The notes beneath the pieces are model-generated. The model was not told where the DNA came from and did not search any database. It was given only the letters and a program-made list of their open reading frames with translations. Position numbers and translations under genes: made by a program. This document shows positions 6,351 through 64,000 of a stretch of DNA of 64,000 nt, piece after piece. Source of the stretch: Alphaproteobacteria bacterium (GTDB lineage: Bacteria > Pseudomonadota > Alphaproteobacteria > JASGCL01); NCBI GenBank assembly GCA_965262775.1, contig CBDHFT010000006.1, positions 323,437-387,436 on the forward strand, written 5' to 3'. Within the stretch, counting starts at the first letter, position 1, and each line of letters starts with the position of its first letter.

Positions 6351-7049
6351 ATGGCAAACGGATTATTTATTGTTTTTGAGGGAATAGATGGCTCGGGTAA
6401 AACCAGTCAAGCCAAAAAATTACAGCAATTCATGGCGGCGGCGGGGCGTGAAGTTATCATGACCGAGGAGCCGCGCAAAAAATCTTTGGGACAATGGGTA
6501 AGGCAGAAATTACTGCATACCCGCCATTCATCGGAAGATAACCAGGAAGCGGGCGGCGATAAGGCTTATCCGTCATCCCCCAGCGGCGAATGGCAAAAAG
6601 AAATAGATGATTTAACCATGGTTTATATGTTGTTGGCGGCGCGCGCCGAACATGTGGCCGATGTTATTTTGCCCGCCCTGGCCGCGGGCAAGGTGGTGAT
6701 TTGCGACCGATTTTCCCATTCAACCTTGGCTTACCAAGGTTATGGCGCGGGGGTTGATATTGAATTGATAGAAAAATTAAGCCAGCCGATTAGCGCGATG
6801 GTAAAACCCGACAGGGTTTTTTTGATTGATATCGCGCCGCAAGCCGCGCGATTACGGCTTGAAATGGGGCGCGAAGGCAAAGACACCATGGAAGAAAAAC
6901 CCATCGAGTTTTTTGAAAAAGTAAGGTTGGGTTTTTTAACTATTGCCAGGGACAACCCATCTTTGGTAAAAATTATCGATGGCCTTGATAAGGAAGAAGT
7001 GGTGGCAGCAGCCATAGAAAAAAATATTCAACCATTATTAAAAAACTAA
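6351..7049 (+). CDS. tmk: thymidylate kinase
   Basis: P-loop FIVFEGIDGSGKTSQ and a DRF/DRY-type motif (CDRFSHS). First gene of the tmk-holB-metG-tatD cluster. Confidence 0.9.
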   Translation: MANGLFIVFEGIDGSGKTSQAKKLQQFMAAAGREVIMTEEPRKKSLGQWVRQKLLHTRHSSEDNQEAGGDKAYPSSPSGEWQKEIDDLTMVYMLLAARAEHVADVILPALAAGKVVICDRFSHSTLAYQGYGAGVDIELIEKLSQPISAMVKPDRVFLIDIAPQAARLRLEMGREGKDTMEEKPIEFFEKVRLGFLTIARDNPSLVKIIDGLDKEEVVAAAIEKNIQPLLKN

Positions 7050-7051
7050 TC

Positions 7052-8404
7052 ATGAAAGAACGTTATTCTTCCCCAACCCAGCCGCTACCTCATCCTTTGT
7101 TGGTAAAAAAAATTATTGGTCATGATGCAGCCTTAAAAATATTGACCGATGGATTATTGGCGGGCCAGCCCAAACATCACGCCTGGTTATTAACGGGGCC
7201 ACAGGGGGTGGGGAAGGCAACATTGGCTTATCACATCATCGTTAAACTTTTGTCGCGTGGCGCGCGGCAGGATGGGGTGATGATGATGGCGCCCAAAGAA
7301 AATATTACGGAGTCAGCGAGCGATGGTAAAAAAGCGATCGGCTTATTTGCCGAGGAAGATTTGTTTGCTGGCGGATTAGATTTGGGAGAAATGCCCGCTA
7401 AGCCCGCCGCTAATATTCCCGCTGGGGCAGCAAGTCAAAATGCAGGGGCAATACCAGCGGATAATTCGACAGGTATGGCGGCTGGGGGTGCAGGTAATAT
7501 TAACCGAACAAATGAAGAAGAGGTTATCAAGCAATTGCGCGATGTATCGCACCCGCATTTTTTGCTGTTGGATAAAAATATCGATACAGCCGAAGAAAAA
7601 GGCGAAGGGGATGAGGCGGACAATAAAGCAAGCCCCCGCACAAAAAAAAATCAAATCACCGTTGCCATGGCGCGTAAAATTTCTGCCTTTTTTTCTTTTC
7701 ATGGGTTTGATAAAAATTTACCGCGCGTGGTGTTGATAGACGGCGCGGAAGACATGACGCCCGCCGCCGCCAACGCGTTGCTCAAAAATTTGGAAGAGCC
7801 GCCCCCCAATAGTATTTTTTTTCTTATCAGCCATCGCCCAGGGTTGTTGCCCGCGACCATCCGTTCGCGTTGTTTTATGTTGCCGATAAGTCGCATGGCC
7901 GACGATAAATTATCGCATTTATTAGCGCAATTGGTGCCGACGATTCAGCCAGTTGAAAACGACGCCCTGACCGCGCTGGCGGGTGGGCGATTGGGGCGGG
8001 CGATAGAGCTTTACCAGGAAGCGGGGCTTAATATTTATCGTGATTGGTTGGATTTTTTTCTTAACCCGCAAAAAGAATGGGCCGATAGAAAGAAAAAAAT
8101 CATAACAACTTTGCTAGCCCAAGAACGTCCCGCACGCGCCCAATTGTTTTTGTCTTTGGTCGAGGATTTTTTCTTGCGGATGGCGCATTACATTCATAAA
8201 ACCACCAAAAATTATTCATTTAGCGACGAAGAAAAAGTTTTTCAGCTATTTTTATCGCGCCAAGATATCGCCAAATGGTTGGATTTTTGGCAAACACAAA
8301 AAGAATTTTTTCAACTTGGTTTTGCACCAAAAAATCTTAACCGCGATTATTTGGTAACGCAATTATTAGACGAAACAAGCGAACTTCTATTGCTACGGCG
8401 ATAA
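7052..8404 (+). CDS. holB: DNA polymerase III subunit delta-prime carrying a ~100-aa low-complexity insertion
   Basis: AAA+ clamp-loader motifs HAWLLTGPQGVGKATLA and the SRC-type motif SRCFML are present. At 450 aa it is far longer than typical, because of an Ala/Gly/Asn-rich insert at roughly 7274-7697 that contains an in-frame A9 run. Confidence 0.85.
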   Translation: MKERYSSPTQPLPHPLLVKKIIGHDAALKILTDGLLAGQPKHHAWLLTGPQGVGKATLAYHIIVKLLSRGARQDGVMMMAPKENITESASDGKKAIGLFAEEDLFAGGLDLGEMPAKPAANIPAGAASQNAGAIPADNSTGMAAGGAGNINRTNEEEVIKQLRDVSHPHFLLLDKNIDTAEEKGEGDEADNKASPRTKKNQITVAMARKISAFFSFHGFDKNLPRVVLIDGAEDMTPAAANALLKNLEEPPPNSIFFLISHRPGLLPATIRSRCFMLPISRMADDKLSHLLAQLVPTIQPVENDALTALAGGRLGRAIELYQEAGLNIYRDWLDFFLNPQKEWADRKKKIITTLLAQERPARAQLFLSLVEDFFLRMAHYIHKTTKNYSFSDEEKVFQLFLSRQDIAKWLDFWQTQKEFFQLGFAPKNLNRDYLVTQLLDETSELLLLRR

Positions 8405-8427: not shown

Positions 8428-9942
8428 ATGACAAAATTTTATCTTACCACGCCTATCTATTACGTGAATGACAAACCGCATATTGGTCATGCCTACACCA
8501 GTTTGGCGGCCGATGTTGTGGCGCGGTATCATCGATTAAAGGGCGATGATGTTTTTTTCCTAACGGGCACCGATGAGCATGGGCAAAAGGTTGAACGGGC
8601 GGCGGCGGCGAAGGGGATAGAGCCCCAGGTTTTTACCGACCAGGTTTCTCAAAATTTTAGGGATTTGCTGGTGGCAATGAATTACAGCCCCAACAATTTT
8701 ATTCGCACCACCGAAGACCGCCATAAAAAATGTTGCCAGTTATTATGGCGACAATTGGAAAAGGCAGGATTTATTTACAAAGGTTATTACGAAGGATACT
8801 ACGCCATAAGGGACGAAGCCTATTACCAAGAATCCGAATTAACCAAAACCCAGGATGGCAAATATATTGCGGCGAGCGGCGCCGAGGCGGTGTGGGTGAA
8901 GGAAGAAAGTTATTTTTTTAAATTGTCGGCATTCCAAGAAAAATTGTTGGATCATTACGAACGGCACCCCGAATTCATTGCGCCAAAAATTCGCGCCAAC
9001 GAAGTGATTAGTTTTGTGCGCGGCGGGTTGAAGGATTTATCGATATCGCGCAAAAATTTTTCGTGGGGCGTGGCGGTGCCCGATGACGCGGCGCATGTTA
9101 TGTATGTGTGGATTGACGCCCTGACCAATTATTTAACCGCCATTGGTTATGGCACGGACGATGCACAATGTAATAAATTTTGGCCATGCGATTTGCATTT
9201 GGTGGGTAAAGATATTTTGCGTTTTCATGCGGTTTATTGGCCCGCCATGTTGATGGCCGCGGGGTTGGCCATGCCCAAAAAAATATTCGCCCATGGTTGG
9301 TGGATGAACGATGGACAAAAAATGTCAAAATCGCTTGGCAATGTTATCGACCCCAATGATTTAATAAAAAAATTTGGTTGTGACCAAACGCGATATTTTT
9401 TATTGCGCCAGGTGCCGTTTGGCGACGATGGCGATTTTTCAGAAACAATGATGAAGGATCGTTGCAACCATGATTTGGCAAATGATTTGGGTAATTTGGC
9501 GCAACGCACCCTGTCGTTGGTGCAAAAACATTTGGGCGGAAATTTTCCCCAAAAAAATAATCCGCCAAGCGATGAAGCAAAGAAATTATTGGATTTAACA
9601 AAAAATCTATTGCCCACCGTGGAAAAACATTTGGACAATTTGGCTTTTCATCGGGCGTTGGAATCGATTTGGGCGGTGATTGGCGAAGCCAATCGCTTCA
9701 TTGATAAGGCGGCACCATGGAGCCTGGCCAAGACCGACAAGGCCGCGATGGAAGATGTTTTGTGGTTGTTGTTGACGATATTAAAGGACGTGGCAATTAT
9801 TTTGCAATGTTTTATGCCCGATACGATGAAAAAATTATTGCAACAACTTGGGGTTGATGATACAACCATAAAATCATGGGGTAAGGAATATGTTTCCCAA
9901 AAAACATTGCCCGCCCCGACGGCTATTTTCCCTAGATTGTAG
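8428..9942 (+). CDS. metG: methionine--tRNA ligase (short form)
   Basis: HIGH motif (PHIGHAYT) and KMSKS motif present; 504 aa. Confidence 0.92.
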   Translation: MTKFYLTTPIYYVNDKPHIGHAYTSLAADVVARYHRLKGDDVFFLTGTDEHGQKVERAAAAKGIEPQVFTDQVSQNFRDLLVAMNYSPNNFIRTTEDRHKKCCQLLWRQLEKAGFIYKGYYEGYYAIRDEAYYQESELTKTQDGKYIAASGAEAVWVKEESYFFKLSAFQEKLLDHYERHPEFIAPKIRANEVISFVRGGLKDLSISRKNFSWGVAVPDDAAHVMYVWIDALTNYLTAIGYGTDDAQCNKFWPCDLHLVGKDILRFHAVYWPAMLMAAGLAMPKKIFAHGWWMNDGQKMSKSLGNVIDPNDLIKKFGCDQTRYFLLRQVPFGDDGDFSETMMKDRCNHDLANDLGNLAQRTLSLVQKHLGGNFPQKNNPPSDEAKKLLDLTKNLLPTVEKHLDNLAFHRALESIWAVIGEANRFIDKAAPWSLAKTDKAAMEDVLWLLLTILKDVAIILQCFMPDTMKKLLQQLGVDDTTIKSWGKEYVSQKTLPAPTAIFPRL

Positions 9943-9975
9943 CCAAGCTATTTAATAAATGAAAGAAGTTACATA

Positions 9976-10827
9976 ATGGAACAACCTCAGCAACAATATA
10001 CACTTGATGGTCAATCGGTGCATTTGATTTATAAATTAATGACGCAGGTCATGCCAACCTTTACCATTGCGGCGGAGGGGCAAAATATCCTTGATTTGAT
10101 AATCAACAGTATGTCGCACACCCAAAACCATGTGGGGGTGCTGTTGGATATTATGAAGATGACGGGTAAAAAAATTGTTGAGATTGTTCCTGATGACGAT
10201 GTTATCAAAAAGCATGATTTGACCAATGAAATTGAAAATCTAAAAAATTTGTTTAACCATTATAAAAGCGATAAACATTTTCTTAACGAATATGAAAAAG
10301 TCTATAGTTATGTATTTAATGTTTTGCAGAAAAAAAACGATATAAAAAAAGTTTTAGAAATTGGCTTGGGCACAAGAAACAAACAAGTGCCAGGCAACAT
10401 GACATGGAATAATTTTAGCGAGTGTGGCGGTTCTATCAGGTCATGGCGCGATTATTTACCCACCACACAAATATATGGTTGTGATGTTGATAGAACGGCT
10501 TTGTTCCAAGAAGAAAGAATAAAAACATATTTCGTCGACCAGCTATCGCCAAAAACTTTTGATGACCTGTTGGTTGAAACGGGTGGAGAATTTGATGTCA
10601 TTATTGATGATGGGTTGCATTATGTGCATGCCAATTTGAACAGCTTTGCTTTTGCCTTGCGGGCATTAAAAGCAGGGGGCGTTTTTGTGTTGGAGGATGT
10701 TGATATTATGTATAGCAAAGAAAATCATCTTTTTTGGCAAATGGTTGGCGGGTTGTTGCCCAGCCATTACCATTATGAAATTATCAAATGCAAAATGGCA
10801 CATGTTGTTATTTTTCAAAAGAAATAA
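9976..10827 (+). CDS. class I SAM-dependent methyltransferase, TylF/MycF/CmcI-like, with an unrelated ~115-aa N-terminal region
   Basis: Methyltransferase motifs VLEIGLG (motif I), IYGCDVD, and FDVIIDDGLH...LKAGGVFVLEDV (the TylF/CmcI-type D-x-DH core). Visibly more AT-rich than metG and tatD, which flank it at 34 nt and 3 nt. Confidence 0.6.
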   Translation: MEQPQQQYTLDGQSVHLIYKLMTQVMPTFTIAAEGQNILDLIINSMSHTQNHVGVLLDIMKMTGKKIVEIVPDDDVIKKHDLTNEIENLKNLFNHYKSDKHFLNEYEKVYSYVFNVLQKKNDIKKVLEIGLGTRNKQVPGNMTWNNFSECGGSIRSWRDYLPTTQIYGCDVDRTALFQEERIKTYFVDQLSPKTFDDLLVETGGEFDVIIDDGLHYVHANLNSFAFALRALKAGGVFVLEDVDIMYSKENHLFWQMVGGLLPSHYHYEIIKCKMAHVVIFQKK

Positions 10828-10830
10828 TTC

Positions 10831-11631
10831 ATGACAGAAAGAAATTATTTCGTTGATAGCCATTGCCATTTGGATTTTTTGGCGCGCGATGGGTTGGATG
10901 TTGGCGAGGTTATAAAACGCGCCCAAGCCAACGGCGTAGAAAAATTTTTGACAATCTCTACCAAGTTGGAAACATTTCCCGCGGTGTTAAAAATTGCGGA
11001 AGAATTCGATGATGTTTATGCGTCGGTCGGGGTGCACCCGCACGATAGCGAGGCAACCGTTGAAACCCACCCCGAGGTTGGTGATTTTTTATTACAAGCC
11101 ACCAACCATGATAAGGTAATTGGCATTGGCGAATCTGGTTTGGATTTTTTTTACAACCATTCTAATAAAAAACATCAAACAGAATCATTTCGCACCCATT
11201 TGGCGGTGGCACGAGAGGTTGACATACCCATTATTGTCCACAGTCGCGCCGCCGACAAAGAAACGGTCGATATGTTGCGTGCCGAATCCCACGGTGGAAA
11301 ATTGAAAGGCCTTATCCATTGTTTTTCCAGCACGCGTGATTTGGCAATGGGCGCGTTGGATTTGGGATTTTATATTTCTTTGTCGGGTATTATAACTTTT
11401 CCGAAAGCGCAAGATATTCGCGATGTCTTGCGTGATGTTCCGCTGGATAGGTTGTTGCTGGAAACTGATTCGCCTTACCTTGCCCCCATTCCCCATCGTG
11501 GTAAAAAAAACGAACCATCGTTTTTGCCCGAAACCGCCAAAATATTAGCGGCGGCAAAAAATATATCGGTTGATGAAATAAAAAAAATAACCACCGACAA
11601 TTTTTTTCGGTTGTTCAGCAGTATAAAATAA
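10831..11631 (+). CDS. tatD: TatD family metal-dependent DNase/hydrolase
   Basis: Starts with FVDSHCHLDF and carries the conserved His/Asp/Glu metal ligands across 266 aa. Confidence 0.88.
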   Translation: MTERNYFVDSHCHLDFLARDGLDVGEVIKRAQANGVEKFLTISTKLETFPAVLKIAEEFDDVYASVGVHPHDSEATVETHPEVGDFLLQATNHDKVIGIGESGLDFFYNHSNKKHQTESFRTHLAVAREVDIPIIVHSRAADKETVDMLRAESHGGKLKGLIHCFSSTRDLAMGALDLGFYISLSGIITFPKAQDIRDVLRDVPLDRLLLETDSPYLAPIPHRGKKNEPSFLPETAKILAAAKNISVDEIKKITTDNFFRLFSSIK

Positions 11632-11870
11632 TTTGGCTTAATATTGGGTAGCAATCAAAATTTGAAAACTTAATGATAAAGCCCATTCATAATGGGGAAT
11701 AGGTTTTCACCCTTGGCGCGTTTGTTGACCGCCGTGTTGACCAAAATTTAGTTTTTGCTTTCGCTTAATTGTTTCATCGCGTCGTTCATAAATTTATCGG
11801 TTTGCATAACGGGCACGGCGTTAGATTCATAATAGGTGATAACGAATGATAAAAAGCGTAATAAAAAAAA

Positions 11871-11907
11871 CCCTTTAAGAATTTTTTCTTAAAGGGTCTT
11901 TTTTAAA
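11871..11907. terminator. bidirectional rho-independent terminator between the convergent tatD and pnp genes
   Basis: Stem CCCTTTAAGAA (11871-11881), loop TTTT, stem TTCTTAAAGGG (11886-11896), flanked by a T-run downstream and an A-run upstream. Confidence 0.75.
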
Positions 11908-11927
11908 TTTGTTTGATTGACGATTGT

Positions 11928-14354
11928 CTAAAAATCGCGGCGTCTTTTACCGCCGCCGCCACGACCGCCGCCGCCAAAACCACCGCCGCGGTCACCGCCA
12001 CGATCGTTGAAACGATTGCCAAAATCATCGCCTTCTTTAAATTCGCGCACGCGACCGCCGCCGAAACCGCCACGGTCACCGCCGCCACGATCTCTATCGC
12101 CGCCGCCGCCGCCGCGGCCGCCAAAGCCACCGCCGCCACGACCGCCGCCAAAACCACCGCGACCACCGCCGCCGCCGCGACCACCACGGTCGCCGCCGCC
12201 GCGTTCGCCACGGTCGCCTTTATTTTTTGGTTCTAAATTAAGGTCAGCACCCGTTTGTTGGTCAACCATGCGCATCGACAGGCTTACTTTGCCACGTTCG
12301 GTGCCCAGGCATTTTACCCAAACCATGTCGCCTTCTTTTACCATGTCGCTGGGGTGTTCAACGCGATGTTCGGCCATTTCGGACACATGCACCAAACCAT
12401 CTTTCGCACCCATGTAGGTTACGAACACGCCAAAATCAACGACTGACGCGACCTTGCCATGATATATTTTGCCCGCTTCGGCTTCGGCAACAATGCTTTG
12501 AATCCAATCATAAGCGGCTTTGCCTTTTGTTTCGTCGTTGGCCGCAATGGTGATAAGACCTTCGTCGTCAATATCAACCTTCGCGCCTGTTACTTCAACG
12601 ATTTCGCGGATAACCTTGCCGCCCGTGCCAATAACTTCGCGGATCTTTTCTTTGGGAACCGTGAAGGTTGTGAGGCGAGGGGCATTTTTCGATACTTCTT
12701 GGCGACCATGGTCAATGACCTTGGCCATTTCGCCCAATATATGCAAACGCCCTTGTTTGGCTTGAGCCAAGGCAATTTTCATAATATCGGCGGTGATAGA
12801 AGTGATTTTCAAATCCATTTGTAAGGAGGTGACGCCGTCTTTGGTGCCAGCCACTTTAAAATCCATATCGCCAAGGTGATCTTCATCACCCAAAATATCA
12901 GAAAGCACAGCATAATCGCCGCCTTCTTTTATCAAGCCCATGGCAATACCAGCGCAGGGTGCACTTAATGGCACACCAGCATCCATCATCGCCATCGAAC
13001 CACCGCAAACGGAGGCCATGGATGACGAACCGTTGGATTCGGTAATTTCAGAAACCAAACGGAGCATGTAGGGGAAATCATCTTTTTTGGGCAACAAGGG
13101 GCGCAGGGCACGCCATGCCAATTTGCCATGACCAATTTCACGACGGCCAGGTGAACCAATACGGCCAGCCTCGCCCACTGAAAATGGTGGGAAGTTATAA
13201 TGCAGCAAAAATTCTTCTTTGAATTCGCCGTCGATAGCATCGATAATTTGTTTATCTTGGGTGGTGCCCAGCGTGGCTATAACCAATGCTTGGGTTTCGC
13301 CACGGGTAAAGATAGCCGAGCCATGGGTTTTGCGTAACACACCCACTTTGCAATCGATTTGGCGGATGTCTTCTAACCCGCGACCATCAATACGTTTTTT
13401 GCTGGATAAAATATTGTGACGCACAATAGTTGCTTTTAAATCTTCTAACAACCTGGCAACCAATTGTTTGGCACCTGGTTGTTCCATATCGGCTTTGGCT
13501 TCGTTGGCCACGGCTTCCGCCACCAATTTTTTAACCGCATCCAAGGCCGCATAACGTTCTTGTTTTTTGGTTTGTTGGTAGGCCGATTTTAAAGCATCGG
13601 TTGCCACCTTCTCAATAATTTTTTTCAAATTGCTGGCGTAGGCGGGTTGTGCAGCAACCGCGCGCGTTGATTTGCCAACTTTTGCTTTTAATTCGTTAAT
13701 CATGTCGATAACTTCTTGCAAAGCCTTATGGCCAAAGGTAACGGCATCCAACATGGTTTCTTCGCTCAATTGGCTGGCTTCTGATTCGACCATCAAAACA
13801 CCTTCCTTGGTGCCCGCAACCACAAGGTCCAACATGGTGTCAACCAATTCGGATTTGGTGGGGTTCAATATGAATTGATCGTTTTTATAGGCAACACGGC
13901 AAGCACCAATGGGACCCAAAAAAGGAATATCAGAAATAGCCAAGGCCGCCGAGGAGCCAATCATGGCCGCAATATCAGGATCGTTTTCCAAATCATGAGA
14001 GAGCAGGGTGGCGATAATTTGAGTTTCGTTCTGAAAATTTTCAGCAAACAATGGGCGGATGGGCCTATCGATAAGGCGTGAGGTCAAAACTTCCTTTTCA
14101 GTTGGGCGACCTTCGCGTTTGAAAAAACCGCCAGGCACGCGCCCCGCGGCATAAAATTTTTCTTGGTAATGAACCGACAAGGGGAAAAAATCTTGTTCAG
14201 GTTTTGCTTCTTTCAACGCGACCACGGTGCATAATACCTGGGTATCGCCATAGGTTACGAGCATGGCACCGTCGGCTTGTCTTGCCAAATGCCCCGTTTC
14301 TAATTTTAGTGTTTTGCCGCCCCAGTTTTTTTCAACAACATGATGATTGAACAT
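11928..14354 (-). CDS. pnp: polyribonucleotide nucleotidyltransferase (PNPase) with a ~100-aa C-terminal RGG/Gly-Arg-rich tail
   Basis: Two RNase PH domains followed by KH and S1 domains, then a low-complexity tail ([27 protein letters not shown]...KRRRDF). At 808 aa it is about 100 aa longer than typical PNPase. Confidence 0.92.
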
Positions 14355-31506: not shown

Positions 31507-31920
31507 ATGGTAAAAACAAATGAAACGCCACAACATGGCGTGATAGCAATATCATCAATAATTTATGCAACTTTAAAAACAATAACTTATGGTATCGGCC
31601 GCGGTAGTAAGTTTATTTACAAATTTTGCGCTAAGATTATTCATAACAAATACCTTGCCAATATCATTTATCACCTGTGGCTGGGTTTAGAAAATATATT
31701 ATTCAAACCGCTGGAAAAAATATTGGGGCTTGCATTGCACGCCCTGTTAAAGCAAATCATTGCTTATGGACTTTTATTTTTTGTCCTTTGGCTGTTGCTT
31801 CATAACACTTGGCCATTTACCTGGTTATTTGCATGGTTGTTAAATGCTGGGTGGCATGGCATCATTGCGGTGATTGGTCATGGGGCTACCGCCCTATGGT
31901 CATTGTTGTGGCCATATTAA
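31507..31920 (+). CDS. hypothetical small membrane protein (AT-rich gene)
   Basis: 137-aa ORF with 3-4 hydrophobic segments and no recognisable motif; visibly lower GC than its neighbours. Confidence 0.35.
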   Translation: MVKTNETPQHGVIAISSIIYATLKTITYGIGRGSKFIYKFCAKIIHNKYLANIIYHLWLGLENILFKPLEKILGLALHALLKQIIAYGLLFFVLWLLLHNTWPFTWLFAWLLNAGWHGIIAVIGHGATALWSLLWPY

Positions 31921-49564: not shown

Positions 49565-51058
49565 ATGGTTGCTTCTAGTTTTTTGACCAAGCTACAAACC
49601 ATCATGGCGCGCGCGCGGGTGTTGGTGGTGGGCGATGTCATGTTGGATAGTTATATTTATGGTTTGGTGGAGCGTATTTCGCAAGAAGCCCCGATACCCG
49701 TGCTTAGCCAAACGGGCGCAACCGAATATCGCCCAGGCGGTGCCGCCAATGTTGCCTGTAACATCATGGCCATGGGGGCGGGGGTTTCGCTGGTTGGGTT
49801 GATGGGCGATGACGCGCCAGGCCAGCAATTGGAAGCATGTTTAAAAAAATTGGCGAAAGAATTATCAAACAAATTATCGCTGGATAATCAACTCTATGAT
49901 GGTTTTTTTATAAAACAATCCGACCGCCCGACTACCGAAAAAACCCGCTATATTGCCAACAAACAACAGATGTTGCGTCTAGACCGCGAAAATATTCGCC
50001 CGATTGATAAAAAAACAGCCGAGCAATTGTTAGAAGTAATTGAAAAAAAATTGCCCGATGTCGGGGCGGTGATATTATCCGATTATGGCAAGGGATTGTT
50101 GACCGATAGTTTTTTGCAGGATGTCATCAAGATGGTGAAGGGAAAAAACTTGCCCGTGGTGGTCGACCCCAAGGGGAACGATTTTAAAAAATATCAGGGG
50201 GCGGATTACATAACCCCCAATCGCCAAGAATTACACCAAGCCACCAAATTGGCAACCAAAACCACCGACCAGGTGATTGCTGCCAGTTATGAATTAATCG
50301 CCAGTGTGGGATTACAGGGCGTCCTCGCCACAAGGTCGGAGGAGGGATTGTCATTGATAAGAACATCGCCCGATAAAAAAAATATCATTGCCCATTTTAA
50401 AACCGACGCGCGCGAAGTATTTGATGTGGCTGGCGCGGGCGACACGGTGGTGGCGATTTTTGCCGCGGGTTTGGCGGCGGGTTTGCCGTCAATTTTTGCG
50501 GCGCGTTTGGCCAATGCGGGCGGCGGCGTGGTGGTTGGAAAACGCGGCACGGCCGAGGCCAACCTTACCGAGATTATCGCCATGATATATTCATCGATAG
50601 AGCATGGCGAATATAACCCGAACGAGGGCGAGGCCTTGGCAAAAATTTCGCAATGGAAAAAAATGGGCAAAAAAATTGTGGTCGCCAATGGATGCTTCGA
50701 TATGTTGCACGATGGCCATGTTAGCCTGCTGCAACAGGCGCGGGAGCAAGGCGATGAATTGGTGGTGTTGATAAACAGCGATGATTCGGTGGCGCGGTTA
50801 AAAGGGGCGAGCCGACCATTTCAACCGTGCCAGGTTCGCGCCGATGCGCTGTTAGGCCTGGCGGAGGTTTCGCAAGTTATTCCATTTGAAGAAGACACGC
50901 CCGCCGATATTATAAAAAAAATCAAACCCGATGTGTTGGTGAAGGGCGATGATTACGCGGGCAAAGATATTGTCGGCGCGAAAGATTCGGGGCGGGTTTA
51001 TTTGGCCAAGTTAAAAAATGGTTTTTCAACCAGCAATATTTTAAAAGATTTGATTTGA
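49565..51058 (+). CDS. hldE: bifunctional D-glycero-beta-D-manno-heptose-7-phosphate kinase / heptose-1-phosphate adenylyltransferase
   Basis: PfkB-type kinase N-domain (VLVVGDVMLDSY, DVAGAGDT) and a cytidylyltransferase C-domain (GCFDMLHDGH). Confidence 0.88.
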   Translation: MVASSFLTKLQTIMARARVLVVGDVMLDSYIYGLVERISQEAPIPVLSQTGATEYRPGGAANVACNIMAMGAGVSLVGLMGDDAPGQQLEACLKKLAKELSNKLSLDNQLYDGFFIKQSDRPTTEKTRYIANKQQMLRLDRENIRPIDKKTAEQLLEVIEKKLPDVGAVILSDYGKGLLTDSFLQDVIKMVKGKNLPVVVDPKGNDFKKYQGADYITPNRQELHQATKLATKTTDQVIAASYELIASVGLQGVLATRSEEGLSLIRTSPDKKNIIAHFKTDAREVFDVAGAGDTVVAIFAAGLAAGLPSIFAARLANAGGGVVVGKRGTAEANLTEIIAMIYSSIEHGEYNPNEGEALAKISQWKKMGKKIVVANGCFDMLHDGHVSLLQQAREQGDELVVLINSDDSVARLKGASRPFQPCQVRADALLGLAEVSQVIPFEEDTPADIIKKIKPDVLVKGDDYAGKDIVGAKDSGRVYLAKLKNGFSTSNILKDLI

Positions 51059-55638: not shown

Positions 55639-57058
55639 TTATTTTTTCTTTTTTGATTTGGCGGGTTTGGCAAGCCCTTCCATCATCGAGGCCTCCAACC
55701 CATGTTTATAAAATTGTTCTTGGCTGCTTGTCGCGGGGATTCCCAAACCAATCAGCTTAAGGATATAATAACTGCCTGCACCAAATACAAAACTATACAT
55801 AACAACAAACGCCACCAGCGACCATAAAACTTGCGGCCCCGTGATGGCGGGCGACACCGATTCAACTGTGCGCATCACCTCATAAACGGTGAAGGGTTGC
55901 CGACCAATCTCGGTCACGAACCAGCCCGCCAACAGGGCGATAAAGCCGCTTGGCATCATCGCCATCCACCAATATTGCAGGGCGCGGTTGGTAAAAATCT
56001 TTTTGCGATAATAGGCCCAAGCGCTGGTAAGCCCCAAACCTATCATCAACAACCCCAAGCCAATCATAATACGGAATGACCAGAAAACCCATGCGACATA
56101 GGGCCTGTCGGCGGCGGGCACCGATTTTAACCCCTTTGACCTCGCCATTCCAGCTGTGGGTCAGGATAAGGCTTGAAGCATAAGGTATAGATAGCTCGTA
56201 ATGATTCTTTTCATTTTTTTGGTCGGGGATAGCAAACAGACGGAAGGCAGCGGGTTGTTCCGTTTTTTCCCAAATACCTTCCATCGCGGCAACCTTCATG
56301 GGTTGGTGCTTGAGGGTATTGAGGCCATGCAAATCACCAACCAATAATTGTAAGGGCGCGGCCAAGGCCAGCATAAGCGTCGCCATGGCAAGCATGGTTT
56401 TTGCTTCGTTGATATGACGTTTGGTAAAAAGATAGAATGCCGCGACACCACCCACCACCAACGCCACCGAAAGATAAGCCGCCAACACCATATGCACAAG
56501 CCGATAAGGAAAGGACGGGTTGAAAACAATAGCAAGCCAATCCAGCGGATATAACCTGCCGTCGGGGCCGACTTCAAAACCCTGGGGGGTTTGCATCCAA
56601 CTGTTGGCGGCAAGAATCCAAAATGCCGATAACAGCGTGCCCAGGGCAACAATCACCGTTGCCGCAAAATGCATTTTGGGCGACACACGATTAAAACCAA
56701 ACAACATGATACCCAAAAATGATGCCTCCAAGAAAAAGGCGGTTAAAACTTCAAACCCGAGCAAAGGACCTATGACATTCGAAATGCGGTCGGCAAATAT
56801 CGACCAATTGGTGCCAAATTGATAGGACATCACGACGCCCGATACGACCCCCAAACCAAAGGAGACGGCAAAAATTTTTATCCAAAATTTGTAAAGGTTA
56901 AGATAGACGATTTTTCCTGTTTTAAGCCAGAGACCTTCCAGCACTGCTAAATAACTAGCAAGGCCGATGCTCATGGCGGGGAAAACAATATGAAAGCTAA
57001 TCGTGAAGGCAAATTGAATGCGAGCCAGGAGGAGGGGATCGAGAAGGTTATCTAACAT
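55639..57058 (-). pseudogene. cydA: cytochrome bd ubiquinol oxidase subunit I with a +1 frameshift at a C4 run (plus 56131-56134); sequencing error or pseudogene
   Basis: ORF 55880..57058 carries the CydA N-terminus through the Q-loop ...LILTHSWNGEVKG, then reads out of frame. ORF 55639..56148 continues as GLKSVPAADRPYVAWVFWSFRIM.... Removing one G/C restores the conserved EVKGLK..P..RP junction. Confidence 0.65.
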
Positions 57059-57317: not shown

Positions 57318-58292
57318 ATGACAATTACAACGCGCTTGATGGGTGGACTGGGCAACCAATTGTTTCAATATGCGGCGGGGCGCGTCTTGGCAAAAAAACA
57401 TAAAACGACACTGAGGTTGGATACAAGTTTTCTGGCGCAACAAAATAAAAATATTACCAACCGCCCTTATGAACTGGCACCCTTTACCCTTAAAATTGAT
57501 AGGTTGGAAAATTGCGAGCCTGGCGAACAGGATAAAGTCATTGAAGAAGATAATCTGACCGCCCCCGAAGCATTCATGGCAAGCCCGCCCGATAGTTTTT
57601 TGATAGGTTATTGGCAGGGGCGATTTTATATAGAAAAAATAAAAGATGAATTGTTGGAAACCATCAAACCGACAAAACCATTGTCAAAACAATCGCAACA
57701 AATATTAAGCCAAATAAAAAAAACCAATGCGGTGTTGGTGCATATTCGCCGTGGTGATTACGCAACCTTATCGTCCGCCAATCGGTTTCATGGTTTGTTG
57801 CCGATGGATTATTATCAAAGGGCAATTAATGAAATGCTGCGCCATGTAAAAGACCCAAGTTTTTTTATTTTTTCTGACGACCCGCAGTGGGTAAAAGAAA
57901 ATTTAGCAATAGCAAATCATAAAACGGTATATGTAACCCACAACCAAGGAAAAAATTCATGGCAAGATTTAATATTAATGAGCCATTGCCAACATGCCAT
58001 TATCGCCAACAGCAGTTTTTCTTTTTTGGCGGCTTATTTGTTACAATTGCGCCATGCCAAGGATGCTAAGGGGGAGGGCAAGGAGGGTGGCAAGGCGAAT
58101 ATCATAGCACCACGCGAATGGTTTCGCGCGCGCGCCGTTGACCAAGAAAAATGGTTTCCAGCTGGTTGGCAATTGTTATCGGCCCAGCCCCGTTCGCCAT
58201 TTCGTACTTTCTATAGGTTATTGACAAGCAAGATAAAAACCCGCATTAAATTAACGATAAAGCGACATAAAACCAAAGGCATAACAACATGA
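57318..58292 (+). CDS. glycosyltransferase family 11 (alpha-1,2-fucosyltransferase-like) with a Lys/Gly-rich C-terminal extension
   Basis: GT11 N-terminal signature LMGGLGNQLFQYAAGR; 324 aa. Its stop overlaps the next start as ATGA. Confidence 0.75.
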   Translation: MTITTRLMGGLGNQLFQYAAGRVLAKKHKTTLRLDTSFLAQQNKNITNRPYELAPFTLKIDRLENCEPGEQDKVIEEDNLTAPEAFMASPPDSFLIGYWQGRFYIEKIKDELLETIKPTKPLSKQSQQILSQIKKTNAVLVHIRRGDYATLSSANRFHGLLPMDYYQRAINEMLRHVKDPSFFIFSDDPQWVKENLAIANHKTVYVTHNQGKNSWQDLILMSHCQHAIIANSSFSFLAAYLLQLRHAKDAKGEGKEGGKANIIAPREWFRARAVDQEKWFPAGWQLLSAQPRSPFRTFYRLLTSKIKTRIKLTIKRHKTKGITT

Positions 58293-62975: not shown

Positions 62976-63344
62976 ATGAAAAAAAATAAGGGCTTGGTAT
63001 TTGGCGGTGCGGTGTTAGCATGGTTGCTGCCTATCGCGGTTAGTTTTTTCATGGTTGATGGTTCGACCACGCCCCATAGTTATAAACCCAATATTTATGT
63101 ATTTAAATTGGTGATGTTTATTTTGGCATCGGCCATTGCCTATTATTTTTATAAAAAATTGAGGGATAAAAAAGATTTGACCATTACGGTGGCGCATGTA
63201 TTTCTTGCGACTTCGGTCTTGCTTGACATGATATTGCTTGTGTCGGTTTTTAAAATGCCCTTTATGATATGGGTTGCAATGATATTGCCATTTTATCTGG
63301 TTGCCTTTTATGGGATTTACTTTTTGCTAAACTATAAGAAATAG
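62976..63344 (+). CDS. hypothetical small membrane protein (3-4 TM)
   Basis: 122-aa hydrophobic ORF between the FabH-like and MBL genes. Confidence 0.4.
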   Translation: MKKNKGLVFGGAVLAWLLPIAVSFFMVDGSTTPHSYKPNIYVFKLVMFILASAIAYYFYKKLRDKKDLTITVAHVFLATSVLLDMILLVSVFKMPFMIWVAMILPFYLVAFYGIYFLLNYKK

Positions 63345-63359
63345 TTTATCATCACCGCT

Positions 63360-64000
63360 GTGTTATCAGTAAAATTTTACCAGGCTGGTTTTTGTAAACA
63401 CCCTGAATGCGTGATGAGCGGGCGCATAACTTTAAGTGGTTTAAAAAATGTTTCTATCCCCATGGTGTGTACCCTTATCAAACACCCCAAACATGGGTTG
63501 ATGTTGTTTGATGTTGGGTATAGCGATAATTTTTTAAAAGCATCCGATAAAATGCCATATCGTTTGTATCGTATGGTAACCCCCGTTTCTATCGGTGAAA
63601 CCCTGGTCGAGATGTTGGAACGCGACGGTATTGATAAAAATGATATCAAATATATTTTTATTTCACATTTTCATGCTGACCATATATCGGCGGTCGATGA
63701 TTTCCCCCAAGCAAAAATTATTACCGCCCAGGCGGGTTATGATTATGCAAAAAAAAATAACGGGGTTTGCGGCGGTAAAAAAAGGATTATTACCCGATCT
63801 GATGACGTTGTTTAAGAAACGAAAATTTGAATTTATCGAAGATAAAAAACCTATCAAGGGGCATAAAAAACTTTATAATTTTATAACCCACGATATTTTT
63901 GGTGATGGTGCAATGGTGGCGGTTGATTTGCCCGGTCATGCACGTGGCCAGCATGGATTATATTTGCAAGATACCAACCGCGGAAAAGTATTTTTGGTGG
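63360..64000 (+). pseudogene. MBL-fold metallo-hydrolase (lactonase/thioesterase-like); the ORF-track frame stops at 63815 but homology continues in the +1 frame to the window end, with the frameshift at the A6/A7 run near 63777-63783
   Basis: HFHADH (HxHxDH) lies in the ORF-track frame. ...GLLPDLMTLFKK...HDIFGDGAMVAVDLPGHARGQHGLYLQD... (the PGH motif) lies in the other frame. The text as printed has A6 and gives one continuous frame, whereas the ORF track implies A7. Confidence 0.55.

Follow-up and report, generated by a model that had tools for sequence, protein, structure and literature searches.

A MycE/TylE-like, putatively sugar-modifying O-methyltransferase gene long resident in the tmk-holB-metG-tatD operon of an alphaproteobacterium

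The window analyzed here, a stretch of 64,000 nucleotides (nt) from an Alphaproteobacteria bacterium (assembly GCA_965262775.1, contig CBDHFT010000006.1 of 412 kb, positions 323,437 to 387,436 of the forward strand), carries between metG and tatD a gene for a protein of 283 amino acids (aa), which we call MT1. MT1 is an insertion relative to the ancestral tmk-holB-metG-tatD operon, but an old one. Judging from sequence and predicted structure, its product is almost certainly an S-adenosylmethionine (SAM) methyltransferase with a class I Rossmann fold, and it is probably a metal-dependent sugar O-methyltransferase, whose chemistry would very probably be that of the mycinamicin enzyme MycE. By analogy with related genes elsewhere we lean towards a surface glycan as its target. 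The reading as a whole, a surface-glycan sugar O-methyltransferase riding as a passenger in a housekeeping operon, is the one that we prefer with moderate confidence. An earlier reading of this DNA, made from the letters alone and here called the sequence-only reading, had described MT1 as a TylF/CmcI-like methyltransferase gene.

The placement of MT1 next to MycE comes from searches with both sequence and structure. Among the sequences of the Protein Data Bank (PDB), phmmer found significant matches only to MycE (3SSM, E = 3.3e-13) and to 8IA9 (9.9e-10), which according to the structure title is SpnK of the spinosyn pathway. The profile of an alignment of 55 family members (A2) matched SpnK at 1.1e-18 and MycE at 5.7e-18, and no other chain significantly. 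Neither search returned a chain resembling catechol O-methyltransferase (COMT) at E <= 0.01, and TylF/CmcI-type sequences were found neither by the single sequence at E <= 10 nor by the family profile at E <= 0.01. An AlphaFold2 model with A2 as input was of high confidence (pLDDT, the predicted local distance difference test, 90.7; pTM, the predicted template modelling score, 0.88), and the top PDB matches of this model in Foldseek were again MycE and SpnK (E ~1e-10, probability 1.00), with a root-mean-square deviation (rmsd) in the core of 2.2-3.0 A over ~155 columns. Next came Mg-dependent catechol, CCoA and SafC-type O-methyltransferases at ~1e-6, and TylF/CmcI-type structures were absent from the top 50 matches. 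The earlier assignment thus stands as far as the metal-dependent O-methyltransferase kind is concerned, with Methyltransf_24 as the nearest Pfam model, but not as far as TylF/CmcI is concerned: neither PF05711 (TylF) nor PF04989 (CmcI) matched MT1 at E <= 1 or any of the 55 A2 members at E <= 0.01, and MycE and SpnK take their place. MT1 would accordingly be named for the TylE/MycE type, to which it appears to belong, and not for TylF/MycF; the annotation should read "MycE/TylE-like sugar O-methyltransferase" and not "TylF/CmcI".

A search of 5.8 billion proteins returned 335 homologues of MT1, mostly of 250-300 aa and with query coverage of up to 98%, most of them named "hypothetical" or "SAM-dependent methyltransferase"; outside its own species the best identity was 40-41%. 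The family comprises 1,574 clusters (50% identity) at E <= 1e-30 among 1.84 billion representatives, and the species representative (P0001, the representative of the 96% identical cluster to which MT1 belongs) scores 297 bits against the family profile (E 1e-83). In A2 there are 23 invariant positions, including K100, E128, G130, G132, M142, G151, S153, G168, D170, Q189, D207, D211-H215, N220, G235, E240 and D241, and MT1 has 23 of 23. The gene and the parts of the protein that matter for the argument are the following.

9976-10827, plus strand: MT1 methyltransferase gene, an open reading frame (ORF) of 283 aa from ATG to TAA, intact also in the close relatives L001 and L248 (see below).
9976-10242, plus strand: family-specific helical N-terminal region (aa 1-89), without sequence counterpart in MycE and SpnK.
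10243-10335, plus strand: HYKSDK...Y..Y extension (aa 90-120), family consensus YGSDK..HxYH..YG, aligning with SpnK 158-190 and with MycE.
10354-10371, plus strand: LEIGLG, SAM-binding motif I (aa 127-132), with E128, I129, G130 and G132 invariant in the 55 members, aligning with LEIGVG of MycE and SpnK.
10606-10620, plus strand: DDGLH (aa 211-215), aligning with DDGSH of MycE, where D212 corresponds to the metal ligand Asp275 and H215 to the general base His278.
10693-10698, plus strand: E240-D241, invariant, aligning with IED of MycE and SpnK, where D241 corresponds to the second metal ligand (MycE Asp304).

In the HMMER alignments D212, H215, E240 and D241 face MycE D275, H278, E303 and D304 (the MycE chain numbering was converted by subtracting a tag offset of 20 residues), and all four are invariant in the 55 members. 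The core motifs pointed out in the sequence-only reading are real, as DDGLH at aa 211-215 and GGVFVLEDVD at aa 234-243. For the motif at aa 90-120, A2 shows an invariant K100 together with D99, Y106 and Y110 at 90% conservation or more. For the MycE-type group Tyr208, Asp275, His278 and Asp304 have been described as the conserved active site, in which Mg2+ is held by two aspartates and by the 2'- and 3'-hydroxyls of the sugar (PMC9275233), and the histidine is the general base (PMC9539859). Transferred to MT1, this would mean that SAM binds to the Rossmann core at LEIGLG, that D212 and D241, probably together with E240, hold a metal ion which is chelated by the vicinal diol of a sugar, and that H215 deprotonates the target hydroxyl, which would then be methylated. 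A sugar is the most likely acceptor, with 6-deoxyhexoses such as rhamnose or fucose as plausible candidates, and it would be part of a cell-surface glycan such as the O-antigen or core of lipopolysaccharide (LPS), a capsule or a glycoprotein.

The N-terminal region stands apart from this core. Residues 1-89 are present family-wide, with a mean identity to family members of 15% compared to 42% in the core, and are predicted as packed helices (12-25, 38-47, 49-62 and 73-80; pLDDT ~80-90 in the AlphaFold2 model). The sequence-only reading had regarded some 115 N-terminal residues as unrelated to the methyltransferase fold; this has to be shortened to ~89, since the PDB alignments to MycE and SpnK begin at aa 90-120, and this segment carries the D99/K100/Y106/Y110 motif that aligns with both. 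The proposal of a targeting or regulatory domain did not fare better, as no membrane or signal features were seen and the maximal 19-residue hydropathy of the whole protein is 1.35 (residues 221-239), below the level of membrane segments. The auxiliary domain of MycE reportedly builds the tetramer and takes part in acceptor binding, and by this analogy a role of the N-terminal region in assembly/oligomerization or in acceptor binding is more likely. In length the region falls well short of the ~150 residues that lie ahead of the catalytic domain in both MycE and SpnK. A partial structural correspondence to the MycE auxiliary domain is possible, since some Foldseek alignments run to ~225 columns at an rmsd of 4.5 A.

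Having described the protein, we turn to its genomic position. The neighbours were identified with Pfam and NCBIfam as follows.

6351-7049, plus strand: tmk (Thymidylate_kin 1.7e-41; Pfam and NCBIfam).
7052-8404, plus strand: holB (DNA_pol3_delta2; Pfam and NCBIfam).
8428-9942, plus strand: metG (NF008900 1.6e-203), with the stop codon TAG ending at 9942.
9943-9975, plus strand: metG-MT1 spacer of 33 nt, with the purine-rich stretch GAAAGAAG ending 7 nt upstream of the ATG.
10828-10830, plus strand: MT1-tatD spacer of 3 nt, TTC.
10831-11631, plus strand: tatD, with its ATG at 10831 (TatD_DNase 7e-82, TIGR00010 3.7e-85).
11870-11897, plus strand: hairpin with a 12-bp stem followed by a T run, between the convergent tatD and pnp.

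The ORF is real and intact, and MT1 is wedged into tmk-holB-metG-tatD as had been claimed, leaving no room for a promoter or terminator of its own. The distance of 3 nt to tatD is correct, the TAA ending at 10827 and being followed by TTC and the ATG at 10831, and the close placement behind metG holds as well, although the spacer measures 33 nt and not 34, which is the count to the A of the ATG. In a simple scan there was no terminator-like signal around MT1 and no promoter-like signal above background, the promoter-like sites occurring at background rate. Since the spacers are only 33 nt and 3 nt, MT1 is probably co-transcribed, and it would then be expressed constitutively together with the tmk-holB-metG-tatD housekeeping genes. 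The hairpin at 11870-11897 is the first good terminator-like site 3' of the operon, a role that we infer. As to holB, its product of 450 aa is of unusual length and has low-complexity sequence inserted at ~aa 90-200; no other operon gene diverges as much between strains, holB showing 83% aa identity when compared ungapped, position by position, and 94.6% nucleotide identity with 6 gaps by blastn.

To place the insertion in time, the junction between metG and tatD was compared in 80 genome loci, each from a different species and with MetG at most 59% identical, and in 80 metagenome loci, taking the gap as the distance between the metG and tatD tblastn matches. The order tmk, holB, metG was the same in the 80 genome loci. 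Both metG and tatD were present in 77 of the 80 genome loci, 69 of which had no more than 100 nt between the matches, and in 56 of the 80 metagenome loci, 48 of which had such a short gap. Together, 117 of 133 alphaproteobacterial loci have 100 nt or less at the junction, which shows that metG directly followed by tatD is the ancestral state and agrees with what had been assumed for many alphaproteobacteria. None of the 133 metG-tatD loci has a homologue of MT1 (within 6 kb in the genome loci), and none was found in all 160 loci. Gene-sized inserts at the junction were seen in the comparison loci only in L043 and L051, and these are other genes: an EamA-like small membrane protein together with an unannotated 276-aa protein in L043 (7573-8851), and an EamA-like small membrane protein together with two SGNH-type hydrolase-like proteins in L051 (3771-5599). 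The junction seems to be repeatedly permissive to insertion.

The lineage itself is poorly sampled, with a best MetG identity of 59% in 185,579 species-representative genomes and of ~60-66% in JGI metagenomes, and only four contigs at 72-77% MetG identity in 5.8 billion proteins. Two close relatives have the same gene arrangement as the window: L001 with 98% nucleotide identity, in which the metG-MT1 spacer is kept with 3 substitutions, and L248 with ~95%, in which the methyltransferase gene is 97.8% nucleotide-identical to MT1 and tmk is 93% identical. L248 (ERZ25068833, ctg58208) is a contig of 1.63 Mb whose name ends in "_c", which suggests that it is circular and hence represents a small-genome alphaproteobacterium (~45% GC). 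Relatives at 76-77% MetG identity came only from the large protein search with MetG, and these three lineages share the gene order where the contigs reach (ruvB, tmk-holB-metG, tatD, pnp-rpsO-truB-ribD). At the junction they differ. In L249/L250 tatD begins 18 nt after metG, without a methyltransferase. In L252 the junction holds a 371-aa gene of the PAD_porph family (agmatine/peptidylarginine deiminase; 1764-2936), on both sides of which lies a perfect direct repeat of 22 nt; the repeat, ACCGATAAAAATTATTTTATTG, is the 5' end of tatD, and the orphaned original tatD start codon remains directly after metG; this repeat is a clean insertion footprint. In L251 (GCA_051010635.1, 76% MetG identity) 12 nt separate metG from the start of an ORF that is cut off by the contig end after its 73rd codon, and these 73 codons match the N-terminus of MT1 (31% identity, E ~1e-8) and, among ~390 family members, match only the protein of the window species. 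The L251 fragment is apparently an orthologue of MT1 at the same junction.

In the MetG tree the window and L248 are sister to ((L252, L249), L251). The most economical account is that the gene entered the junction once, long ago, at the base of the clade and was lost again in the L249/L252 branch; a history in which closely related genes reached this junction twice independently would require an equal number of events and is less plausible. Around MT1 itself there is no insertion scar, the only candidate being 11 nt of the spacer whose resemblance to the beginning of tatD is not significant (p = 0.08). A mobile-element origin was considered and rejected, there being no integrase, transposase or repeats and spacers of only 33 and 3 nt, and recent horizontal transfer was likewise rejected in view of the conservation in L001, L248 and L251.

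The age of the insertion bears on the AT-richness of MT1, which the sequence-only reading had noted as a sign of acquisition or fast evolution and which was borne out by a comparison of GC content and codon usage with the other ORFs of the window. With a GC content of 0.364, compared to a mean of 0.463 (standard deviation 0.032) for the other 61 ORFs, MT1 is the lowest of the 62 window genes (z = -3.1), and its GC at third codon positions (GC3) is 0.384 compared to 0.510 in the other window ORFs (z = -2.5). Both amino-acid composition and synonymous codon choice contribute to the low GC. In composition, the residues F, Y, M, I, N and K (FYMINK) make up 34.6% compared to 28.3%, and alanine 3.2% compared to 9.2%. 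For codon choice we used the GC3 expected from the amino acids of MT1 itself: 0.356 was observed and 0.443 expected, the third lowest value of the 62. A per-codon synonymous log-likelihood was discarded as a codon-usage test and replaced by this measure, since it is confounded by amino-acid composition and was misleading. By the expected-GC3 test the next most deviant gene is the glycosyltransferase family 11 (GT11) gene at 57318-58292 (0.401 compared to 0.480). Other ORFs of low GC (0.37-0.39) lie on the plus strand at 31507-31920, 62976-63344 and 63360-63815, two of them without a Pfam match and the last an MBL-fold fragment running toward the window end; the low-GC3 signature of MT1 is found also in 31507-31920 and 63360-63815.

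Acquisition in this sense holds relative to the ancestral operon, but it was not recent. The synteny comparison found what had been named as an argument for ancient residency, i.e. the same gene in the same place with the same GC content (0.364) in both L001 and L248, together with the homologue in L251. Since the L251 fragment has a GC content of 0.368, close to the 0.38 of its neighbours, the GC contrast seen in the window does not have to be read as a sign of recent transfer.

Nor do the strains show fast evolution when compared with each other. The ratio of nonsynonymous to synonymous substitution rates (dN/dS) between the window and L001 was 0.23 for MT1 and 0.057 for metG, and between the window and L248 it was 0.134 for MT1, 0.059 for metG, 0.144 for tmk and 0.108 for tatD, so that MT1 with 0.13-0.23 resembles tmk and tatD. 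No invariant residue was changed in L001 or L248. Judged by these substitutions, MT1 is under purifying selection and is a functional gene. In the long term the N-terminus is far more diverged than the flanking genes (31% compared to 53-77% identity). The synonymous rate between the window and L248 is uneven along the operon (tmk 0.23, metG 0.11, MT1 0.077, tatD 0.34), which suggests recombination between strains within the operon.

Downstream of tatD the strains differ by a second methyltransferase gene.

11615-11672, no strand: strain-polymorphism breakpoint between tatD and pnp, where L248 has ~1.1 kb (L248 11640-12744; blastn blocks).

The extra segment of L248 contains the gene of a paralogue, MT2, which shares 58% identity with aa 82-283 of MT1 (tblastn) and is thereby far closer to it than the other family members, which reach at most 42%. 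MT2 has EE instead of the ED metal motif, and its frame breaks at a G13 run (L248 11955-11967), between an N-terminal ORF (11694-11987) and an open catalytic frame (11960-12634). The window is without MT2, and the C-terminus of tatD differs between the window and L248. This shows that the methyltransferase lineage has diversified locally around tatD. The G13 break may be a homopolymer assembly error, the mark of a pseudogene or a slipped-strand phase-variation switch. Tracts of this kind are typical of phase-variable genes for surface modification, and MT2 fits weakly with a role in surface variation. Collectively, the junction in this clade shows four states: empty, with the methyltransferase, with PAD_porph and its 22-nt duplication, and with the methyltransferase plus the paralogue with the G13 tract. 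Accessory genes can thus live long as passengers in an essential operon, and the clade offers a small natural experiment in operon invasion.

Evidence for the kind of acceptor comes from family members in other organisms. Five bacterial or unclassified loci with members at 33-41% identity were examined, and four of them (L082, L083, L085 and L086) are surface-glycan gene clusters, with neighbours such as GT2, GT4 (WecA-like), GT9, GT25, Wzy_C, sugar epimerases/dehydratases and O-acyltransferases. In L082, which is probably a marine cyanobacterium because of its 30% GC and a nearby psbZ, the member lies with GtrA, a GT-D-like gene, an epimerase and an asparagine-synthase-like gene; L083 has Wzy_C, GT2, a WecA-like GT4, GT17, GT1 and epimerases; L085 has a GT9 heptosyltransferase, two GT25 genes and an epimerase; and L086 has GT2, DUF5672, two acyltransferase-SGNH genes, GT11 and an epimerase. 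IMG/VR holds 112 relatives of the family, many in metagenome-assembled genomes (MAGs) of giant viruses. Among 109 viral neighbours the most recurrent Pfam families included further Methyltransf_24 (7), GT47 (4), RXYLT1_C (3), HtrL (2), FkbM (2), GT6 and GT10, in addition to ordinary viral genes. The giant-virus MAG loci with members include L181, L182, L185, L189, L192, L194, L198, L203 and L224, where they often adjoin methyltransferases and GT47, GT6, GT10 or RXYLT1-like genes. In BFVD the best structural matches were pithovirus and phage methyltransferases, and Foldseek also found the 638-aa viral protein M1IF74 (1.5e-9, 24% identity), which has the same length as the chlorovirus protein A064R. 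From this length and the accession block we guess that M1IF74 is an A064R orthologue, and we treat it as a lead and not as a test. Taken together, the bacterial and viral contexts speak for the O-methylation of sugars on surface glycans. The family is thus spread over bacterial glycan clusters, phages and giant viruses while having no Pfam or NCBIfam model and no characterized member. A single assay, on whichever member, would provide an annotation for thousands of genes and would probably explain many O-methyl sugars in LPS and in viral glycans.

Several observations weigh against the reading of MT1 as a surface-glycan sugar O-methyltransferase in the operon. The ~280-aa family being uncharacterized, activity, metal and acceptor are extrapolated from relatives that are 24-32% identical in the core. 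NCBIfam gives no match for MT1 and Pfam none above threshold; the profile search that had been proposed put Methyltransf_24 (PF13578) nearest, at 23.1 bits (E 1.4e-4, aa 162-242) below the gathering cut-off of 26.3 bits, and TylF nowhere, with Methyltransf_24 matching 43 of the 55 A2 members at E <= 0.01 (best 5.5e-7). MycE Tyr208 (in GVGGY) faces R134 (in GLGTR) in MT1 and an Asn in the family consensus (GTNN); a tyrosine from elsewhere (Y106 or Y110) could stand in for it. The N-terminal region, with 89 residues compared to ~150, differs from the auxiliary domain of MycE. No glycan genes lie next to MT1 in this genome, so the link to glycans is drawn from other organisms, and in the fifth homologue context, the jumbo-phage-like contig L253 (328 kb, GCA_013572995.1), there are no glycan neighbours within 8 kb save for a gene encoding a polysaccharide lyase at the locus end. 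(The L253 contig also carries ClpP, SmpB and many ORFs without known relatives.) The co-transcription of MT1 is read from spacing and the signal scan. The data show directly the ORF, the fold, the homology, the conserved catalytic residues, purifying selection, the insertion with its age and the glycan clusters around homologues; that the enzyme depends on a metal, acts on a sugar of a surface glycan and is co-transcribed are points that we infer. The window does encode a GT11 fucosyltransferase-like gene (57318-58292) and hldE (49565-51058), which indicates that the organism builds complex LPS-type glycans. The GT11 gene (plus strand, alpha-1,2-fucosyltransferase family, Pfam 4.9e-30), an isolated gene with the cytochrome bd genes on one side and a MauE/HMA-like gene on the other, is a second dispersed glycan gene of atypical composition and a possible source of the acceptor sugar of MT1. 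That MT1 lies in such an unusual place can be explained, since other genes have settled at the junction too, in related lineages as well as in unrelated ones.

Of the other explanations the one that survives best, although we consider it unlikely, is that the same metal chemistry serves another hydroxyl- or catechol-type small molecule or a lipid, such as a metabolite, a quinone precursor or a lipid head group. It would suit the missing Tyr208 equivalent, the lack of adjacent glycan genes in this genome and the fact that catechol, CCoA and SafC-type O-methyltransferases come next in structure after MycE and SpnK; it agrees less well with a sequence similarity confined to two sugar O-methyltransferases, no COMT-like chain being found at E <= 0.01, and with glycan clusters in four of five homologue contexts.

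It is very unlikely that MT1 has a housekeeping role coupled to the operon, methylating a ribose hydroxyl of RNA or a nucleotide, e.g. at the 3'-terminal cis-diol of tRNA or another RNA, in connection with MetRS or the TatD exonuclease. Hen1 recognizes a terminal ribose via a metal-bound vicinal diol, so that the chemistry would be suitable, and there are weak FtsJ-like matches in both Pfam and Foldseek, a tight placement in an essential operon that is kept in lineages down to 76% MetG identity, and purifying selection as strong as on tmk and tatD. The FtsJ matches are, however, far weaker than those to MycE and SpnK, and the family contexts elsewhere are glycan clusters and not RNA-processing genes. 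Furthermore, the methyltransferase is dispensable for operon function, because the 133 other loci and L249 do without it and L252 has an unrelated gene in its place. A related idea is a long shot: MT1 would have acquired a housekeeping substrate with a metal-chelating cis-diol, such as a nucleotide or the ribose at the 3' end of tRNA or of another RNA, and would thereby be functionally coupled to MetRS or to the 3'-5' exonuclease TatD. If this were true, a "sugar" O-methyltransferase of the MycE type would have been taken over for the modification of nucleic-acid ends.

That MT1, like MycE and SpnK, tailors a glycosylated secondary metabolite is highly improbable even though the closest characterized proteins are O-methyltransferases of macrolide and spinosyn deoxysugars: the 64-kb window has no biosynthetic cluster, the sister genome is a contig of 1.63 Mb that is suggested to be circular, MT1 is without the ~150-aa auxiliary domain and has only 24-32% identity in the core, and family members lie in LPS-type clusters. 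Finally, a decaying or functionless passenger, whose low GC would reflect relaxed selection and which might be suspected from the lowest GC of the window, the atypical codon choice and an MT2 that is interrupted in L248 and absent from the window, is scarcely credible for a gene with an ORF intact in three strains, a dN/dS of 0.13-0.23, 23 of 23 invariant residues and a confident AlphaFold2 model.

Some features of the window are unrelated to MT1. The Rfam search of the window returned four tRNAs only. The gene for cytochrome bd subunit I, cydA (55639-57058, minus strand), is split by a frameshift near 56100-56150: the ORF 55880-57058 covers only profile positions 1-299 of 418 and then runs into nonsense sequence, and the true C-terminus lies in another frame (ORF 55639-56148), so that either a pseudogene or a sequencing error is at hand. 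The C-terminal tail of polynucleotide phosphorylase (PNPase), of ~100 aa, is rich in Gly and Arg with RGG/GGF repeats (11928-12240, minus strand) and coincides with a local GC peak of 0.57-0.61; the tail is present also in L248, with length differences.

Returning to MT1 as a putative surface-glycan sugar O-methyltransferase, it can be compared with several known systems. The best match by sequence and structure is MycE, the mycinamicin VI 2''-O-methyltransferase of Micromonospora griseorubida (3SSM/3SSN/3SSO), with which MT1 has the fold and the LEIGxG, DDGxH and ED motifs in common, and presumably also the reaction, in which a sugar hydroxyl with a metal-binding diol next to it is methylated. 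MycE is larger, with ~400 aa including an N-terminal auxiliary domain of ~150 aa where MT1 has only ~89 unrelated residues, the identity is 24-32%, and MT1 has a 10-residue insertion after motif I containing an invariant Met and R134 in place of Tyr208. Furthermore, MycE belongs to a biosynthetic cluster and has as its substrate a 6-deoxyallose attached to a macrolide. SpnK, the spinosyn rhamnose 3'-O-methyltransferase (8IA9/8IAA), is the best profile match (1e-18, aa 90-242) and has the YxxDK...H..Y extension and the same metal and base residues. SpnK, TylE, OleY, ElmMI and ThnM1 are actinomycete tailoring enzymes of ~380-400 aa, O-methyltransferases of natural-product sugars with a mutual similarity of 51-55% (PMC9275233), whereas MT1 lies far outside, in a separate ~280-aa family. 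Within this unnamed family MT1 is a full-length member (coverage up to 98%), though a divergent one (40-41% best identity) with a 4-residue insertion after the ED motif and a home in a housekeeping operon instead of a glycan cluster. TylF/MycF/NovP (PF05711) and CmcI (PF04989) belong to the same broad class of metal-dependent class I O-methyltransferases as MT1. In chlorovirus PBCV-1, domain 3 of A064R and A061L have been shown by experiment to be the rhamnose 2-O- and 3-O-methyltransferases of the capsid N-glycan, acting at the glycan level and requiring divalent cations (PMC9614988).

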